DNA of 5,088 nt from a virus. This document shows, piece after piece, positions 1 to 5,088 of this stretch (position 1 is its first letter; each line of letters begins with the position of its first letter). Below the pieces are notes generated by a model. It was not told the origin of the DNA and did not search any database. It was given only the letters and a program-made list of their open reading frames with translations. The DNA is taken from the IMG/VR virus record IMGVR_UViG_3300029706_000090, positions 1 through 5,088 of that record, one strand, 5' to 3'. Made by a program: the position numbers and the translations under genes.

Positions 1-93
1 CAGAGTTGCAAGAATAGAGGAAGTAGCGGTCTGAAGTCATCATCCTTTCATAAAAATATTTATGGCACATGTCACGGTCGAAGCATGAGAACC
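1..93. repeat. Terminal direct repeat, identical to 4996-5088. Most simply a circular replicon of about 4995 bp laid out with 93 bp of overlap. Less likely, att-type duplication flanking an integrated copy.
   Basis: Bases 1-93 (cagagttgcaagaatagagg...catgagaacc) recur exactly at 4996-5088. Genes and ORFs continue across the junction. Confidence 0.95.
43..70. other. dif-like candidate XerC/D-type recombination site (tcctttCATAA-aaatat-TTATGgcacat), repeated at 5038-5065
   Basis: The inner half-sites CATAA-N6-TTATG are the most conserved core of dif sites. It lies in a noncoding gap between two small ORFs. No tyrosine-recombinase or integrase gene is present in the element. The outer arms are divergent and the region is AT-rich, so it could be chance. 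Confidence 0.3.
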
Positions 94-185
94 AACATAG
101 AGAAAACAGCAGCGAATACAATGAAATAGCCAATCTCGGGGACAGTGAAGATACCGAAACAATACTGTAAAGGTAAAATAGTCAT
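72..185 (-). CDS. 37-aa hydrophobic small protein, a candidate minor coat protein (pVII/pIX-like by size). Sequence: MTILPLQYCFGIFTVPEIGYFIVFAAVFSMLVLMLRP.
   Basis: Not in the ORF track (too short). Its ATG overlaps the stop of the upstream 205-aa ORF (ATGA at 183-187), implying translational coupling. It is a single predicted transmembrane helix. The stop is TGA at 72-74. Confidence 0.4.
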   Translation of the reverse strand: MTILPLQYCFGIFTVPEIGYFIVFAAVFSMLVLMLRP

Positions 186-802
186 CAGCTCATGCGCCCC
201 CAAATCGCGTTTTTAATCCAAGTAACAGTAGTAATGAAGACAAGGACAACAAGCAGAGCAGAAACGCAAGCTTGCGGGTTGAGTACCTGAGAAGTGGTAG
301 TGGAATCTTCCTCATAAGGGAGCTGAATAAGTTGAGTCGCACTATTATAGGAATACCTTTCAGACGTATAGCCGGACTTGTGCACCGTCTCAGTGCGTTC
401 GATAAAAAACGTGTCTCCGAACCAATCCATAATAGAAGTGAAACTATTAGAGACGTTAGGGAGATTAGCATACAAAGCCGGAGTATCTGCGGCACGGTCA
501 TCATAAGCGGTCAAACTCCCCTCAAAAGGCAATTCTTCTTCCTGAGGAACATAATCTTCACGGAGGTCAGGAGATTCAGTGATATTTTGTGCAGGTTCAC
601 CAGAAGCAGAAGCTTCAGACGGAGAATCATCTCGTGCATCTTGCTGTGAATCAAGTTTAACAATAGCTTCGGCAGATGCCTTAAGATAATCATACTGCTG
701 CACGGTCATGTCACAAGTACTACCGTCTTTATACAGCACAGTGTAGACAGTAACGCCGTCAGTATCAACCCAAGTTTTGATAATAGCAGGGACTTCCATC
801 AT
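185..802 (-). CDS. 205-aa acidic protein with a C-terminal transmembrane helix (tail-anchored), in the position pVI occupies in Ff phages. Function unknown.
   Basis: Long ORF with an excellent SD (GGAGGTGATAA before ATG). Its start overlaps the stop of the 55-aa ORF (ATGA). It has a Glu/Asp/Ser-rich middle and a C-terminal hydrophobic stretch, ACVSALLVVLVFITTVTWIK. Confidence 0.7.
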   Translation of the reverse strand: MMEVPAIIKTWVDTDGVTVYTVLYKDGSTCDMTVQQYDYLKASAEAIVKLDSQQDARDDSPSEASASGEPAQNITESPDLREDYVPQEEELPFEGSLTAYDDRAADTPALYANLPNVSNSFTSIMDWFGDTFFIERTETVHKSGYTSERYSYNSATQLIQLPYEEDSTTTSQVLNPQACVSALLVVLVFITTVTWIKNAIWGRMS

Positions 803-966
803 TTATCACCTCCATCCCAAAGGCCACGGAGAACAAAACCAACAAGCGAAAGCAGAAGACAGACAAGAACGAAGTTGCCAAAGGTACCGAAGCCGAAAAA
901 AGAAAGATTAAGGACATTAGCGATAAACGATGTTACAACACCGAGGGTCGAAACGAAGTCTACCAT
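799..966 (-). CDS. 55-aa small hydrophobic membrane protein, a candidate virion minor coat or membrane protein. Sequence: MVDFVSTLGVVTSFIANVLNLSFFGFGTFGNFVLVCLLLSLVGFVLRGLWDGGDK.
   Basis: Not in the ORF track. AAAGGA lies 9 nt upstream of the ATG at 966. The start overlaps the stop of the 43-aa ORF (ATGGTAG), and its own stop overlaps the start of the 205-aa ORF (ATGA). It has two hydrophobic segments. Confidence 0.5.
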   Translation of the reverse strand: MVDFVSTLGVVTSFIANVLNLSFFGFGTFGNFVLVCLLLSLVGFVLRGLWDGGDK

Positions 967-1091
967 GGCAACCAATCCTTTACGAATTTATAGATACCGA
1001 GGGCAACGAGAAAAACGACAACGGCGATAACAAGAGCACCACCGGAACCGAGCAAGCCAAAGACCTGCTTGAAAAAGTCAATAAAAGTCAT
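960..1091 (-). CDS. 43-aa major-coat-protein candidate (pVIII-like, with no signal peptide, as in Pf3 coat protein). Sequence: MTFIDFFKQVFGLLGSGGALVIAVVVFLVALGIYKFVKDWLPW.
   Basis: Not in the ORF track. GAAAGG lies 9 nt upstream of the ATG at 1091. The ATG overlaps the TGA of the pIII-like gene (ATGA at 1088-1091). The protein has an amphipathic N-terminus, a hydrophobic core, and Lys residues near the C-terminus, which is the typical pVIII layout. Confidence 0.5.
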   Translation of the reverse strand: MTFIDFFKQVFGLLGSGGALVIAVVVFLVALGIYKFVKDWLPW

Positions 1092-2266
1092 CCGTCAACC
1101 GCCTTTCGTATCAACATACGGAGCACAACGGCACCAAAGACCATGAGCGAAATAATGAAAAGGAAGCCGCCAAGATTCTGAAACATGGCATTTAGTACCG
1201 AAATAGAAGTCGAAGCAACGTCAGTATCTACGGAAGAAGAAGAATTCCAAGAATTCAAGTTATCCTTTGTGTTTGTGAGAGTATCGGAATCAACATCAAA
1301 GTCCTTAACAAGCTGGTCTTGAAGCTTATCCATAGTAACTTGAGAAATCCAATCACCAACCTTGACATCAGCAGGAAGCAAAGCATCAGGAACCCAAAGA
1401 GTTAAAGCAAAAGAGATAGAAACATCAAATTGCGTATTATAGACATGCATACCAGAACTAGAAGGTTGCTTACAAAAAACTAAACCAACGTCAGAAGAGG
1501 GAATAGAAAAAGCAAGGGGGAAAGGACGATAAGAGGGAGTACTTAAATGCGACATGCTCAAATGCAAATAATTATCATTAGAGGGGGAAGCCCAAAAATC
1601 ATTATCACCGTTCCGAATACTAAAAGAAGTATGATTAGTAGAACTATCGGATTTATCCCCAAAAAAGAAAATATTAGTGGGAACATAAATAGGATTATAA
1701 TCAAATATTTCGTGATCGAAATAATCAGAAATAGAAGAAGAATCAGAAGAAGGCCAAGAAGTCAAAAAACCAAAAATAGAACGGTCGGAAAAGACATCTG
1801 AAATGTTTTGAAGATCACCTCTCCATTTAACAGGATAAACGCGGAGAGCGCCAATATTGTAAGAAGGGTCACCAACAGGAAAAGAGGGCAAATCAAAAAG
1901 ATAACCAAAATCACTAGTCGGAACATAAGGAACCGAATACATATAAGTATGCGTAGTACCAGAAGAAGAAGTATAAGAATAGGTCGAAGAATCAGTTGAA
2001 TAAGGGAGCCAAGAATTATAAGAACTACCAGGGTAAGAGGAATACTCCTTCATAGGAGAGCAAATCAACTCATAACCAGAATACCCAGATAAAGACTTGC
2101 GTTGCCAAACATACCAAGAGCCAGGACGAGAATGAAAATCATCATTAGAAGGAGACGCGGGCCAATTATTAGATGCAAAAGCAGGAACAGAAAGAGAAAA
2201 AGAAAGAACCAAAGCCGCGACAAGGGCGGCGAAGCGCTTAAAGAAGCACCAATGCTTTTTATTCAC
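1088..2266 (-). CDS. pIII-like adsorption or minor coat protein. It has an N-terminal signal peptide, a Ser/Tyr-rich ectodomain, and a C-terminal membrane anchor. The probable start is GTG at 2266, which follows AAAGGTGGT + 9 nt. The maximal ORF begins at GTG 2284 and gives 398 aa.
   Basis: The signal-peptide-like N-terminus is (M)NKKHWCFFKRFAALVAALVLSFSLSVPAFA|SNN. The C-terminal hydrophobic anchor GFLFIISLMVFGAVVLRMLIRK is followed by a short basic tail. It is the largest structural gene, with tiny coat ORFs downstream of it. Confidence 0.6.
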   Translation of the reverse strand: MNKKHWCFFKRFAALVAALVLSFSLSVPAFASNNWPASPSNDDFHSRPGSWYVWQRKSLSGYSGYELICSPMKEYSSYPGSSYNSWLPYSTDSSTYSYTSSSGTTHTYMYSVPYVPTSDFGYLFDLPSFPVGDPSYNIGALRVYPVKWRGDLQNISDVFSDRSIFGFLTSWPSSDSSSISDYFDHEIFDYNPIYVPTNIFFFGDKSDSSTNHTSFSIRNGDNDFWASPSNDNYLHLSMSHLSTPSYRPFPLAFSIPSSDVGLVFCKQPSSSGMHVYNTQFDVSISFALTLWVPDALLPADVKVGDWISQVTMDKLQDQLVKDFDVDSDTLTNTKDNLNSWNSSSSVDTDVASTSISVLNAMFQNLGGFLFIISLMVFGAVVLRMLIRKAVDG

Positions 2267-2313
2267 TTCGCCACCACCTTTCACGGCATCGAATAACGGA
2301 GGTCAATCCGTAC

Positions 2314-2387
2314 TGGTTGCGGGGTTAGGATTCGAACCTACAGCTTCACGTTCAGAGCGTGACGTGCTACCGTTGCACCACCCCGCC
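2314..2387 (-). tRNA. tRNA-Gln (anticodon CUG at 2355-2353), 74 nt, with an encoded 3' CCA
   Basis: Minus-strand sequence: GGCGGGGUGGUGCAACGGUAGCACGUCACGCUCUGAACGUGAAGCUGUAGGUUCGAAUCCUAACCCCGCAACCA. Cloverleaf features by eye: acceptor stem 2-7/66-71 (6 bp, G1·A72 mismatch), U8, A14, a 4-bp D-stem GUGC/GCAC with G18G19 in the D-loop, a 5-bp anticodon stem UCACG/CGUGA, loop CU-CUG-AA with U33 and A37, a 4-nt variable loop, and a GGUUCGAAUCC T-arm (G49·A65 mismatch). Confidence 0.7.
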
Positions 2388-2447
2388 ATGTGAGAGCGGC
2401 GAACCACTCTCCCATAGGAAATGAAATTTAGGTTTGAACAAAGAAAG

Positions 2448-2690
2448 TTAAACTTCCTCAATTCCGAGAAGAAACCCATTGCGGTCGAAGTCGAAATCGT
2501 ACATAGCGCCAACAACAACAAGCGCATACGGCATCATACGAGCGTCAACATTGATTCTATCAACCTGCACGCCATCGTTGTCATCATTTGCACGCATCGA
2601 ATATTCGACCATGAGAGTAGTAAAATCATAGTTTTTGCCCTGCTTAGATGTGCCAGCGCGACGGGACTTACCAACTACAGTAGCTTTCAT
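2448..2690 (-). CDS. ssDNA-binding protein, gpV-like (80 aa)
   Basis: It lies immediately downstream of Rep, as gV does in Ff. GAAAGGATGG lies 7 nt upstream of the ATG. The segment SRRAGTSKQGKNY resembles the M13 gV DNA-binding wing TRSGVSRQGKPY (pattern S-R-x-G-x-S-[RK]-Q-G-K-x-Y). The size matches gV (87 aa in Ff). Confidence 0.6.
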   Translation of the reverse strand: MKATVVGKSRRAGTSKQGKNYDFTTLMVEYSMRANDDNDGVQVDRINVDARMMPYALVVVGAMYDFDFDRNGFLLGIEEV

Positions 2691-2708
2691 TGAGAGACCA
2701 TCCTTTCA

Positions 2709-3845
2709 TCAGAATAAAGATATATCATCAAACCCGACTTCACTAAAGGGAGAGGGGTCATCAGCGACTTCACGAAATTCTTCAACGGCAACACGCGAGG
2801 ATTCCGAGAATTGCGCAACTTCCTCTGTCAGCGCCAGAGGGGAGAACGGAAGACGCTCATTATAAAACTGTTCCCACTTACAACAAGCGAGGATTAGAAG
2901 CTCAGGGCGATAAAGCATAATATCAATAAGCCTGTGACCGAAGACATTAGCAACATAGGTCATTTTTTCTTCCTCGGTATGGATAGCAACGGAGAACTTT
3001 TGAACAAGGTCATCACTAAGGGGATGCGATAAGTCCTTAGTGAACTTAATGTTACGGGCATCAATATCGGTCACAAACTGCATATCATCCCAGCCATCAG
3101 GGAGAAGAATTTCATTCCCATAGCGACACCAGAATTTACGGAGATAAGCGAAGAGCATGTCAGGGTCTTCATAGTAAAACCAGAAAAGAGGAGAGGGGTC
3201 ATAGACGGTACGAGACCCAGCACGAACACGAGAAATGAATTTAAGCTCCATTTCATAACGAATAATATAGGAATCATCAGGGCAATCCAGAAGTTCACCA
3301 GAAGACATACAGAACTTTTGTTCAGGGTCTTGCAGAGATTTATTATAGATACGACAGAAGACCGCAGAAGACGTTCTGCGACCGATATAAACGGTAGTAG
3401 AATCGCCATAGCCTAGATACATGAACTTGCGAACCTTACGGGCTTTTTCAGGGTAATTCATTTCATCGACAGATGCAGTAACAACACCGAGATAGAACTC
3501 GCGCCACCGTTCTTTTTTCATAACAACATCGAAACAAAAGTCAAGACGGGAAAAATGACCGTATACATGACCTTCCTGCATCAGTGACGCAAGTCGTGGT
3601 AAGGTGGAGCGGAAAAGCTCACAACCATGACCAGACACTTGCAAAGAATGCGGAGATTGTTTCGCACCGTTGTTCGGCTTATAGAAAAGCCCCGCAGGGG
3701 AATTAAAAGGGGAATTCTCACTTGCGTTAGAAGTCTGTGCAAAGTGCAAATCACCCTTAGCAAGAGCATCTTCGATTTTAGGAATAGAAATTGAGCCCTG
3801 TTCAAAAGCAAATGTAGCGTAGTCAAGTTTAACAACCGTTTTCAT
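2709..3845 (-). CDS. rep: Rolling-circle replication initiator of the Rep_trans family (pT181 RepC/RepD-like). The probable start is ATG 3845, which follows AAAGGTGG. The maximal ORF starts at 3887 and gives 392 aa.
   Basis: Motifs: SRLDFCFDV near the N-terminus of the domain; CRIYNK with the putative catalytic Tyr codon at 3345-3347; YIIRYEMELK (compare the R-V-E-I-E-L-K segment of staphylococcal RepC/D). The upstream ATG at 3887 has no SD and lies inside the predicted -10 hexamer of the promoter. Confidence 0.8.
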   Translation of the reverse strand: MKTVVKLDYATFAFEQGSISIPKIEDALAKGDLHFAQTSNASENSPFNSPAGLFYKPNNGAKQSPHSLQVSGHGCELFRSTLPRLASLMQEGHVYGHFSRLDFCFDVVMKKERWREFYLGVVTASVDEMNYPEKARKVRKFMYLGYGDSTTVYIGRRTSSAVFCRIYNKSLQDPEQKFCMSSGELLDCPDDSYIIRYEMELKFISRVRAGSRTVYDPSPLFWFYYEDPDMLFAYLRKFWCRYGNEILLPDGWDDMQFVTDIDARNIKFTKDLSHPLSDDLVQKFSVAIHTEEEKMTYVANVFGHRLIDIMLYRPELLILACCKWEQFYNERLPFSPLALTEEVAQFSESSRVAVEEFREVADDPSPFSEVGFDDISLF

Positions 3846-3877
3846 GTGAGAAAACCACCTTTCATTTCCATGGCTAA

Positions 3878-3906
3878 ATGTTACCATAGTATGGATAAGC
3901 TGTCAA
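3878..3906 (-). promoter_or_regulatory. Sigma70-like promoter reading into rep on the minus strand: -35 TTGACA (3906-3901), 17-bp spacer, -10 TAACAT (3883-3878)
   Basis: Perfect -35 hexamer, optimal 17-bp spacing, 4/6 match at -10. It lies about 35 nt upstream of the SD and ATG at 3845. It is the only obvious promoter on the coding strand, which is consistent with a single operon that ends at the terminator at 4089-4141. Confidence 0.5.
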
Positions 3907-3922
3907 GAGGAAATTTCAAAAA

Positions 3923-3949
3923 GGTGGGCGTATTACACGAACGCCCACC
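3923..3949. other. 9-bp perfect inverted repeat (GGTGGGCGT...ACGCCCACC) with a 9-nt loop. It is a candidate plus-strand origin, Rep nick-site hairpin or operator just upstream of the promoter.
   Basis: Perfect complementarity between 3923-3931 and 3941-3949, in the noncoding region between the terminator and the rep promoter. Confidence 0.4.
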
Positions 3950-4010
3950 GGCTCCCGCCATCACGGTAGACACTACACAACGGAAGCCCCTACCAAACTG
4001 TTTAGGAGGG

Positions 4011-4029
4011 GCAAGGGCTTTGCCCTTGC
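4011..4029. other. 8-bp GC-rich hairpin (GCAAGGGC-TTT-GCCCTTGC) in the intergenic region. It is a candidate for a minus-strand origin, packaging signal or ori structure.
   Basis: Perfect 8-bp stem with a 3-nt loop, embedded in a GC-rich noncoding segment (3950-4088) that is atypical of the rest of the genome. Confidence 0.35.
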
Positions 4030-4088
4030 GGGGACGAGGGACGCGGTGGAGACGCTATCGCGCGACTAAACGTCGGGAGTGCTCCGGT

Positions 4089-4141
4089 AAAAAAAAGAAC
4101 TCCCCTAACCCCCTACGGGGGCACGGGGAGAACTTTTTTTT
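4089..4141 (-). terminator. Strong bidirectional rho-independent terminator. It ends the minus-strand operon directly after the Zot-like gene.
   Basis: A8 (4089-4096), then a two-tier GC stem CTCCCC/GGGGAG (4100-4105/4125-4130) enclosing CCCCC-TAC-GGGGG (4109-4121), then T8 (4134-4141). On the minus strand the stop codon TAA (4142-4140) runs into the stem-loop, followed by UUCUUUUUUUU. Confidence 0.75.
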
Positions 4142-4763
4142 ACTTCGAGGGGGTCTTGCTGATAACCTGCTCTGTATCGTATTCTAAGGCACTCACCTGC
4201 TTCACGGACTTAGGGATAGTATACCACCTTGCCCTGCCAGCCTTGCGCACCGTGTTGACCAGCTCTTGGCCTCCCTCGGGGCGATGTTCCATGGCAATGC
4301 AGGAGCGATAAGGAGTAAGACGACAGAACCAGCCGATGCGGTTGCAAAGAAAAATACGGTCACAGAGGTCACGAATCTTTTTATCAAAGTCCATGGTCTG
4401 AGAAGATACAATAATCGTCAAATGATATTTGCGCTGCATTTTGAAAAACTCAACTGCTTCTCGGGGCATAGTCTTGAAGTCACGGTTAGAGTGGAGCACG
4501 CCTATCTCATCAATGAGAATGAGAGAATCAGGGAGAAAGGTCTGTTTCCAATATTCCGGCTCTAACTCATAACCGATACCCATATTAGAATAGATAAGCC
4601 CCTTATTAGAACGAAGCCACTTATCAGCAACACGAGACATATACAGAGATTTGCCAGAGCCTTTTGAACCAACAACAGCTTCCAATTTGTATGGATTTTT
4701 GCAATAATTATCGATATATACAAAAAGCCAGCAAATACAAAAGATGAGAATACCATAAAGCAT
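4140..4763 (-). CDS. Zot/pI-like P-loop NTPase, a filamentous-phage assembly ATPase. This short form has an N-terminal transmembrane helix and no C-terminal periplasmic domain. The probable start is ATG 4763, which follows AAAGGA + 9 nt. The maximal ORF starts at 4781 and gives 213 aa.
   Basis: Walker A GSKGSGKS is encoded at 4670-4647. Walker B LILIDEIG compares with Zot FLFIDECG. YHLTIIVSSQT compares with Zot HHGWDICLTTPN. The N-terminal hydrophobic segment is LYGILIFCICWLFVYI. It is the last gene before the terminator, as gI is late in Ff. Confidence 0.75.
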   Translation of the reverse strand: MLYGILIFCICWLFVYIDNYCKNPYKLEAVVGSKGSGKSLYMSRVADKWLRSNKGLIYSNMGIGYELEPEYWKQTFLPDSLILIDEIGVLHSNRDFKTMPREAVEFFKMQRKYHLTIIVSSQTMDFDKKIRDLCDRIFLCNRIGWFCRLTPYRSCIAMEHRPEGGQELVNTVRKAGRARWYTIPKSVKQVSALEYDTEQVISKTPSK

Positions 4764-4786
4764 AGCATATAATCCTTTCATAAGAC

Positions 4787-4829
4787 GAGAAAACGTCGCC
4801 GACCATAAAATGGTCGGCGGCGTTTTCTC
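4787..4829. other. 19-bp near-perfect hairpin (one G·U pair) with a 5-nt loop, between the 42-aa coat-like ORF and the Zot-like gene. It is a candidate packaging signal, minus-strand origin or attenuator.
   Basis: GAGAAAACGTCGCCGACCA (4787-4805), loop TAAAA, then TGGTCGGCGGCGTTTTCTC (4811-4829). It ends 5 nt before the ATG at 4781. No U-tract follows in either orientation. Confidence 0.5.
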
Positions 4830-4836
4830 TCAGCGT

Positions 4837-4965
4837 TTAACTGCGACCGGGAATCCAGCGGCGGAGAACACGAAGCACAATGCCCGCGATAGCGATAATC
4901 ACGAAGACAAGCAGAATCGGCTGCGATTCATAGAAATCAATAAGCTGACCCATCCAAGTGATCAT
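4837..4965 (-). CDS. 42-aa pVIII-like coat protein candidate. Sequence: MITWMGQLIDFYESQPILLVFVIIAIAGIVLRVLRRWIPGRS.
   Basis: Not in the ORF track. It has the canonical major-coat layout: an acidic amphipathic N-terminus (D10, E13), a hydrophobic core, and a basic C-terminus (four Arg). It is followed by the 19-bp hairpin, which is reminiscent of the structure after gVIII in Ff. There is no clear SD, so the start is uncertain. Confidence 0.4.
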   Translation of the reverse strand: MITWMGQLIDFYESQPILLVFVIIAIAGIVLRVLRRWIPGRS

Positions 4966-4995
4966 CGAAGTGAAGAATTCACCGACCAAGGAAAG

Positions 4996-5088
4996 CAGAG
5001 TTGCAAGAATAGAGGAAGTAGCGGTCTGAAGTCATCATCCTTTCATAAAAATATTTATGGCACATGTCACGGTCGAAGCATGAGAACC
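4996..5088. repeat. Second copy of the 93-bp terminal repeat (equals 1-93)
   Basis: Exact identity with 1-93, offset 4995. Confidence 0.95.

Follow-up and report, generated by a model that had tools for sequence, protein, structure and literature searches.

What does a near-perfect and very stable hairpin do in the short gap between the coat-like gene and the assembly gene of a small filamentous phage? The question is raised by positions 4787–4829 of a 5,088-nucleotide (nt) stretch of viral DNA, positions 1 to 5,088 of the IMG/VR record IMGVR_UViG_3300029706_000090, which as a whole is referred to here as the window. The hairpin lies between a small coat-like open reading frame (ORF) and the gene for a Zot-like (pI-like) assembly ATPase. 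An earlier prediction for this locus (hereafter the original prediction) set a standard terminator aside and offered three options instead, namely a packaging signal, a minus-strand origin, or an attenuator or RNA-processing site throttling the ATPase gene. The last of these fits best and the packaging signal is its main rival, whilst the minus-strand origin is weak because a separate hairpin-rich intergenic region adjoins the replication initiator (Rep) gene. The reading favoured here, with a probability of about one half, is that the hairpin acts as a leaky intrinsic terminator, as a stem-loop protecting 3′ ends, or as both, and would in this way uncouple an abundant coat mRNA from a scarce Zot mRNA.

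The palindrome is real and far beyond chance. An inverted-repeat search returned arms of 20 nt each (4787–4806 and 4810–4829) that are 95% complementary (19/20) and stand 3 nt apart, and in 30 whole-genome shuffles the best inverted repeat had 7–12 pairs, compared with the 19 observed. The helix can be drawn as 20 pairs with a 3-nt loop or, when the closing A-T pair is open, as 19 pairs with a 5-nt loop; the 19-bp stem and 5-nt loop first described are therefore one of two forms. Folded as RNA, the minus (gene) strand gives −30.4 kcal/mol (z = −9.1) with one C.A mismatch at 4820/4796, and the plus strand, where the same pair is a G.U wobble, gives −34.9 kcal/mol (z = −10.0), with 0 of 200 shuffles folding as well on either strand. 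The search, the folding of both strands and the shuffles thus bear out the stability that had been predicted. With DNA parameters the hairpin reaches −21.1 kcal/mol (sense) and −22.9 kcal/mol (other strand). No family beyond chance was found for it in an Rfam 15 covariance search, in which the miRNA-precursor family mir-278 scored 18.8 bits (E = 0.93) where the gathering score is 55. An antisense function, to which the plus-strand wobble might point, is unsupported, as the few imperfections of the stem favour neither strand (C.A in the window clade, a sense-strand G.U in the relative L136) and no antisense gene lies nearby; all convincing ORFs in the ORF list of the window are on the minus strand.

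Within the close clade, conservation was taken per column as the mean majority frequency in an alignment of 102 distinct sequences. The 43-nt helix reached 0.95–0.99, compared with 0.68 for the 7-nt spacer before it, 0.74 for the 7-nt spacer after it and 0.90 for the coat-like coding sequence, and it forms a conserved island between two highly variable spacers, the second of which stays A/U-rich despite its variability. The GC core is identical in ∼85 of 92 close genomes, and TTTT follows it directly in 90 of the 92, with a second T-run after that in most. Variation in the stem falls almost wholly on the mismatch pair, which is C.A in most genomes, U-A in four and C-G in two, and the loop is a T-run that ranges from T3 to T7 or more. 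Pairing between the A-tract and the U-tract that flank the core has survived two independent double changes, one to GAAAAAA/UUUUUUC in MT135292 and the other to AAGGAAA/UUUCCUU in L032. In one close genome, L026 (IMGVR_UViG_3300029310_000195), an internal deletion has removed the GC core and left GAGAAAACGCCGTTTTCTC in the gap before Zot; the loss is either natural or an artefact of assembly at the palindrome. Apart from this internal deletion, essentially all close relatives have the palindrome, and in the wider check a hairpin was found in every examined relative with a Zot identity of at least 46%; absence from related genomes, named in the original prediction as a finding that would speak against it, was not what was seen.

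The more diverged relatives came from Logan/ENA contigs, genome bins and GenBank, the IMG/VR and JGI metagenomes having given almost only the close clade. All examined relatives with 46–83% Zot identity carry a perfect or near-perfect GC-rich hairpin of 10–21 pairs in the same gap, behind a coat-like homologue ending in ...RRW[I/L]PG.., and the sequences of their stems are unrelated to that of the window. The stems, with 10–21 perfect pairs and almost no G.U pairs, fold at −23 to −40 kcal/mol, and the coat–Zot hairpin is within the top two or three most stable local structures of each genome, the rest lying after Zot in the non-coding region. Shuffling was applied individually to 16 hairpins, 13 from the 46–83% group and three from more distant relatives, and 15 of them gave z-scores of −3.3 to −8.2, with 0–1 of 200 shuffles as good. 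Counting of covarying pairs was abandoned, as MAFFT cannot align stems without shared sequence, and the shuffle z-scores were used instead together with a table of pairs anchored at the loop, in which each of the four Watson-Crick pair types is represented at every one of the ten innermost positions. Compensated changes can also be read directly between close pairs, from CGCCGACC/GGTCGGCG in the window to CACCGACT/AGTCGGTG in L046, and likewise between L006 and L048, L132 and L049, and L133 and L137. Because the hairpin is retained with unrelated stems, and because every pair type is found at the inner positions, selection acts on the helix and not on its sequence.

Read on the gene strand, the element has the anatomy of an intrinsic terminator, with an A-tract, a GC core of 13 pairs, a short loop and a U-rich tract. 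A GC-rich stem-loop is placed in the nascent RNA of the transcribed strand and downstream of a gene on its coding strand, beginning 7 nt beyond the coat-like stop codon on the strand of all genes, and a terminator consensus scan lists the GC core at 4794–4822 with UUUUCUCGUCUU as terminator-like. The earlier statement that no U-tract follows is literally correct for the full palindrome, whose final 7 nt are TTTTCTC and which is succeeded by GTCTTATG, but the GC core itself is followed by the U-rich UUUUCUCGUCUU. More distant relatives, at 31–46% Zot identity, have textbook or near-textbook terminators at the coat–Zot junction. The gap holds a 12-bp stem and T8 in MT135291, a 7-bp stem and T6 in MT135294, a 12-bp stem and UUUUUAUCUU in MT135290 (a tract also given as TTTTTATCTT), a stem and then a T-rich tail in L045, and a stem and T6 in L133, whilst in the distant genomes L144–L146 and L149–L151 the coat-like and Zot genes abut with no element between them. 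Where Zot identity is 31–38%, the junction has either a textbook stem with T6–T8 or no element, and the tract ranks as strong (T6–T8) in MT135291, MT135294, MT135290 and L133. With an A-tract and a U-tract around the GC core, a layout like that of M13 and T6–T8 terminators in distant relatives, setting a standard terminator aside was not justified.

The second hairpin, directly after the Zot stop codon, is likely the definitive terminator of the operon. It is conserved with compensatory changes and with its A and T runs kept, and distant relatives have an equivalent hairpin with U5–U8 either after Zot or after the ORF that follows Zot. Such canonical hairpin and U-run terminators after Zot indicate that the hosts use canonical terminators, and the coat–Zot element is therefore a weakened version of one. 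The hairpin also remains at the coat–Zot junction while the Rep module switches among Rep_trans, Rep_OBD and REP_ORF2-G2P, and this attachment to the junction fits a role in gene expression there.

The distance to the next gene depends on where Zot begins. For the longest Zot ORF, starting at 4781, the gap is 55 nt (4782–4836) and the hairpin ends 5 nt before the ATG, as originally described, but the conserved start is probably the ATG at 4763, 18 nt downstream. This choice is made because relatives in GenBank are annotated from the equivalent ATG (the 207-aa ‘protein H’ in MT135292/293/296/305), the alignment to the PHROG profile (phrog_25712) begins at residue 7, the upstream ATG is missing from MT135305, and a Shine-Dalgarno (SD) site is present, ATGAAAGGA holding a GAAAGGA ribosome-binding motif that is also found ahead of the Rep and coat-like genes (repeat family D2). 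From 4763, the hairpin ends 23 nt upstream of the start codon and 7 nt upstream of the SD site. A promoter scan of the window found no promoter-like site between the coat-like ORF and Zot, so transcription of Zot depends on read-through, which fits the weakened U-tract.

In the favoured reading, RNA polymerase would transcribe the element and the GC-rich stem would form ahead of the U-rich UUUUCUCGUCUU. A fraction of the transcripts would end at the hairpin, and the stem-loop would shield their 3′ ends from exonucleases, the outcome being an abundant and stable coat mRNA. Only read-through transcripts would carry the Zot cistron, with its SD site starting 7 nt after the helix, and these would stop at the A8/U8 hairpin (4143–4087). 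The net effect would be a high ratio of coat to Zot, like that which the central terminator behind gene VIII brings about in Ff phages, where over-production of pI is harmful. We infer that termination, 3′-end protection or both happen here, and that the termination is partial.

Several observations weigh against this reading. The U-tract is modest in the window, with 5/8 U in the UUUUCUCG that follows the GC core, and these U's are themselves paired with the A-tract; across 14 scored lineages at 49–75% Zot identity the tract is strong in two, moderate in three and weak or absent in nine. The stems are longer and cleaner than termination needs, and within the close clade both the adjoining coding sequence and the canonical terminator after Zot (for which only 22 sequences were available) are less conserved than the helix. 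T-run loops stand on the sense strand in 12 of the 14 lineages (the window, L006, L048, L130, L133, L136 and L139–L142 among them). They go beyond what a sense strand of 35% T explains and are not required for termination; indeed, a T-run loop is required by none of the explanations considered. Finally, the coat-like ORF has no match in Pfam or PHROG, even when its longer homologues are used, and it is from size, composition and position that we infer the upstream ORF to encode the major coat protein.

The turnover of the stems and the exchange of Rep modules bear on two readings at the level of replication or DNA. As a minus-strand (complementary-strand) origin, the hairpin on the infecting single-stranded DNA (ssDNA) would prime synthesis through the host RNA polymerase or primase. 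Such a function would act on one strand and would not depend on the Rep family, and small ssDNA phages such as phiX174 and G4 can place hairpins of this sort between structural genes. Known single-strand origins, however, are larger and imperfect and have conserved motifs, whereas here the stem sequence has turned over completely, with no −35/−10-like boxes in the stem and no promoter-like match on that strand. The conventional candidate is the cluster of further hairpins at 3925–4030 (minus strand), which is followed before Rep by a promoter-like TTGACA-17-TAACAT site (3906–3878); 4087–4143 and 3925–4030 together are likely the operon terminator plus the origin region. A minus-strand origin at the coat–Zot junction is thus very doubtful.

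A site working as double-stranded DNA, be it a Rep plus-strand nick site, a repressor operator or an Xer/dif-type recombination site, is hardly credible. A perfect palindrome would suit it, and Rep_trans and HUH origins are hairpins with a nick in the loop, but the loop here is merely a T-run of variable length, without the conserved Rep-specific nick motif that would co-vary with Rep in a rolling-circle plus-strand origin, and the same type of hairpin occurs with three unrelated Rep families. The loops are T-rich rather than A-rich, and are in that sense strand-specific, which speaks against a duplex site, and a host dif site would be conserved in sequence, which this element is not. A Pfam family search found no helix-turn-helix repressor encoded in the window. 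On the variable T-run loop, the unconserved stems, the Rep swaps and the missing repressor gene, the plus-strand origin, operator and dif site were each discarded.

The window is a complete circular inovirus-like genome of ∼4995 nt, read once, as is evident from bases 1–93, which are an exact 93-nt direct repeat of 4996–5088 (an assembly overlap). Its features are collected in Table 1.

Table 1. Features of the window, in order along the minus strand starting from the non-coding region, followed by the positions of the tRNA gene in relatives.
Feature	Position	Strand	Remarks
Rep_trans-type replication initiator	3887..2709	−	phrog_27843, 1e-248
RstB-like ORF, 80 aa	after Rep	−	ssDNA-binding-type gene
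GC hairpin without U-tract	2411..2392	−	GAGAGUGG-UUCG-CCGCUCUC; after RstB-like gene, ends 4 nt before tRNA gene
tRNA-Gln(CUG) gene	2386..2318	−	Rfam 53.5 bits
398-aa ORF	after tRNA gene	−	
Three small membrane-type ORFs and one 205-aa ORF	between 398-aa ORF and coat-like ORF	−	
Small coat-like ORF	4837..5031	−	homology to relatives' 56–70-aa proteins
Coat–Zot hairpin, full, sense strand	4787..4829	−	GAGAAAACGCCGCCGACCAT-UUU-AUGGUCGGCGACGUUUUCUC; 19 Watson-Crick pairs and one C.A mismatch, 3-nt loop; structure prediction, conservation
A-tract GAGAAAA	4823..4829	−	pairs with U-tract UUUUCUC; lengthens helix to 20 bp
GC-rich core, 13 pairs	4794..4822	−	CGCCGCCGACCAU / AUGGUCGGCGACG; loop 4807–4809; mismatch 4820.4796; found by terminator scan
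U-rich tract UUUUCUCGUCUU	4782..4793	−	directly 3′ of GC core; first 7 nt pair with A-tract
SD site GAAAGGA of Zot	4773..4779	−	9 nt before conserved ATG 4763–4761
Stand-alone Zot/pI-like assembly ATPase, 207 aa	4140..4763	−	Pfam Zot 6.5e-5; phrog_25712 6e-149; phrog_197 Zot-like 6e-9
Second hairpin, A8-stem-loop-stem-U8, 27-nt arms	4087..4143	−	directly after Zot stop; −37 kcal/mol
Hairpin-rich non-coding region, ∼250 nt	3888–4139	−	between Zot end and Rep
tRNA gene in L001	113–186		
tRNA gene in L141	3253–3326		
tRNA gene in L132	585–658		
tRNA gene in L143	1296–1369		
tRNA gene in L144	2428–2501		
tRNA gene in L145	3536–3609		
tRNA gene in L146	2603–2676		
tRNA gene in L147	147–223		
tRNA gene in L148	4588–4657		

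Four ‘Inovirus sp.’ genomes from pig gut, with 82–88% nucleotide identity, are the nearest records in GenBank, ∼120 near-identical contigs come from human-gut and other metagenomes, and small filamentous phages of Gram-positive gut bacteria are common in the gut metagenomes of human, pig, rodent and lemur. The relative with 83% Zot identity, L046, lies at the end of a 96-kb contig (CAVDWO010000002.1), where in 1–9804 a phage-like part of 47% GC abuts DNA of 60–65% GC encoding RadA and CotJA/CotJB/CotJC. Because of these genes on its GC-rich flank, the contig, which is labelled Alistipes onderdonkii, is assigned to a spore-forming Clostridium-type bacterium and not to Alistipes, and the phage copy on it may be integrated or chimeric. 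On another contig of 50.7 kb (L051, 3917–5565), Rep breaks off at about residue 295 and runs into unrelated DNA that carries an Hsp20 gene. The hosts are most likely spore-forming Clostridia that use SD sites and canonical intrinsic terminators, as evidenced through the strong GAAAGGA/GGAGG SD sites in these genomes, the CotJ and RadA genes beside the prophage part of the relative, and host calls from clustered regularly interspaced short palindromic repeat (CRISPR) spacers, by which gut inoviruses with a stand-alone Zot have been assigned to Clostridiales (PMC8530359).

The coat-like ORF is listed as 50 aa from the TTG at 4989, but its homology to the 56–70-aa proteins of relatives extends farther upstream, to just after the TGATGA at 5032–5037. 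The protein has a hydrophobic core and a basic tail, ...LRVLRRWIPGRS. At 4990–5049 (minus strand) the close clade shows no conserved canonical start codon for the ORF: the homology reaches back to the bases just after two in-frame stops (GAAAGGA-TGATGA-CTT-CAG...), MT135292 has CAG in place of the first in-frame TTG (4989), and the two ATGs after the SD site are in another frame. The tRNA-Gln(CUG) of the phage was considered as an initiator for a CAG start and dropped, its anticodon stem being without initiator features.

That tRNA gene is complete and in sense orientation in a filamentous phage of 5 kb; its CCA is encoded, and it has a G1.A72 mismatch. Of the 12 close relatives scanned 11 have the gene, whilst distant relatives carry tRNA-Gln(UUG) or tRNA-Thr instead, and it always lies just before the longest (pIII-like) gene or overlaps the annotated start of that gene. 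It may serve as a genuine tRNA, mark an attP site, or be a place where processing by RNase P/Z cuts a polycistronic mRNA in two. The layout of a hairpin and then the tRNA gene, with a spacer of 3–6 nt, was found in 10 of 13 genomes with stems that differ between lineages (sites in L001, L047, L049, L132, L141, L143 and L148). The RstB-like gene ahead of it is expected to be highly expressed, and if RNase P cut at the 5′ end of the tRNA, the hairpin at 2411..2392 would form the 3′ end of the upstream mRNA, a parallel that backs a role at the RNA level for hairpins without a U-tract.

This parallel, which counts for the favoured reading, also speaks for a pure RNA stability or processing element at the coat–Zot junction. 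No termination would take place; instead an endonuclease would cut in the A/U-rich spacer ahead of the SD site of Zot, the hairpin would then block 3′-to-5′ exonucleases, and the coat segment would outlive the Zot segment. Such an element accounts for the hairpins without U-tracts, and for a spacer after the helix that is the most variable stretch and yet A/U-rich, just as RNase P would create a protected end 3–6 nt ahead of the tRNA gene. It leaves the clear U-tracts of the window clade and of several relatives without a purpose, however, and no conserved cleavage motif was seen, so that protection with no termination at all is improbable.

The coat–Zot hairpin (4808) and the tRNA module (2352) are nearly antipodal, 45–49.5% of the circle apart, in 12/12 complete genomes (the window and 11 others, 4.9–5.6 kb, with Zot identities down to 31%). 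In a packaging signal this spacing would put the two strongly folded elements at opposite filament tips, but it may be a mere effect of conserved gene order. The packaging reading holds that the hairpin stays double-stranded in viral ssDNA of mRNA sense coated by ssDNA-binding protein, and so marks the end at which assembly by the Zot ATPase starts; by analogy with the Ff packaging signal, which comes right after gene IV, it may double as a weak terminator. Much of what is awkward for termination is congenial here: the hairpin is stable as DNA (−21 kcal/mol), its stems are long, perfect and almost without G.T pairs, 9 of 14 lineages have a weak U-tract or none, and T-run loops stand on the sense strand in 12 of 14. 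The packaging signals known from Xanthomonas phages are GC-stem hairpins with pyrimidines in the loop. The element also moves with the morphogenesis module (coat and Zot) and not with the Rep module. Its extreme helix conservation in the 102 close genomes points the same way, but phages with 50–83% identity in their coat-like and Zot proteins have stems unrelated to one another, and the only finely mapped signal outside Ff, that of Xanthomonas phages, is sequence-specific in stem and loop, with a consensus that is absent here. Moreover, the element shrinks to a 7-bp stem with T6 in MT135294 and is gone, with gene order kept, in L144–L146 and L149–L151, the close genome L026 has its GC core deleted, and the classical hairpin-rich intergenic region beside Rep could hold the signal. 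A packaging signal is therefore a serious alternative, though an unlikely one. Its most explicit form would be a structure-only packaging signal of 4–6-kb Clostridia gut inoviruses, a perfect GC helix capped by a T-run, placed in the morphogenesis module before the assembly ATPase gene, serving also as a weak terminator and lying almost exactly opposite the hairpin and tRNA module, with the two at the filament tips; this form is tentative and rather unlikely.

Small filamentous phages of Gram-positive gut bacteria are little studied, and the hairpin, as the only non-coding element that turned up in all the relatives examined at a Zot identity of at least 46%, offers a good handle on them. If the leaky terminator is correct, a strategy of Ff phages, that of a terminator behind the coat gene which keeps a toxic assembly ATPase scarce, would have been adopted in unrelated Gram-positive inoviruses; if the packaging signal is correct, the hairpin would be the element needed for phagemid or display vectors for Clostridia. 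On either reading it is a simple positional marker with which to annotate coat and Zot genes in poorly annotated genomes. What is new is most likely the occurrence of a terminator-type intercistronic hairpin behind the coat gene in this phage group, the kind of element being ordinary.

Among known systems, the Ff packaging signal is recognised during assembly at the pI ATPase and lies after gene IV. The predicted likeness is that of a stable viral-strand hairpin, unmelted by ssDNA-binding protein and directly after a morphogenesis gene, and the viral strand of Ff phages is T-rich too, as is the sense strand here. The Ff signal, however, is an imperfect hairpin of 54–78 nt inside the intergenic region that contains the origin, whereas the element of the window is 43 nt long, near-perfect and set between two genes of the structural module; in this genome the position of the Ff signal is matched by the hairpin at 4087–4143. 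Packaging signals of the Xanthomonas phiLf type have a stem of 7–8 bp with the essential consensus GGX(A/-)CCG(C/T)G and a loop of 6–10 nt with an essential T and C, and may lie outside the classical intergenic region, inside the gII or gIII homologue (Yeh et al., 2023, bioRxiv 10.1101/2023.12.30.573655). The element shares with them a short DNA hairpin with a GC stem and pyrimidines in the loop, but its stems vary between lineages and its loop is UUU; the phiLf-type consensus is absent from 4787–4829, and its sole match in the window (2156–2163) is at chance frequency. Intercistronic hairpins that stabilise mRNA are known from Rhodobacter puf and from the REP element of Escherichia coli malEFG. 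These, too, are stem-loops 3′ of a cistron needed in excess that confer segmental mRNA stability without a U-tract, although they are bacterial, chromosomal and experimentally defined, and the element here is likened to them from its sequence.

The closest comparison is with the central terminator of Ff phages (M13/f1/fd), which keeps coat mRNA abundant and the downstream morphogenesis genes scarce, and for which Edens and colleagues are said to be the source, in 1975. In the M13 record, the stop codon of gVIII is followed by a 56-nt gap with AAAGGCUCC-UUUU-GGAGCCUUU and U6, and then by the SD site and start of gIII, an element used as the classical ‘M13 central’ terminator (PMC3643576). The differences are a helix of 20 pairs (−30 kcal/mol) in the window and of 9 pairs in M13 (∼−18 kcal/mol for the whole gap), a U-tract of 4 and interrupted here and of 9 in M13, a downstream gene that is Zot/pI here and gIII in M13, and a Gram-positive Clostridium-type host, with no sequence similarity between the two elements. 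The likenesses are those of layout: both elements come directly after the coat gene, in a gap of 55 nt here and 56 nt in M13, both consist of an A-tract, a GC stem, a T-run loop and a U-rich tract, and in both the SD site and start of the next gene follow within ∼10–20 nt.

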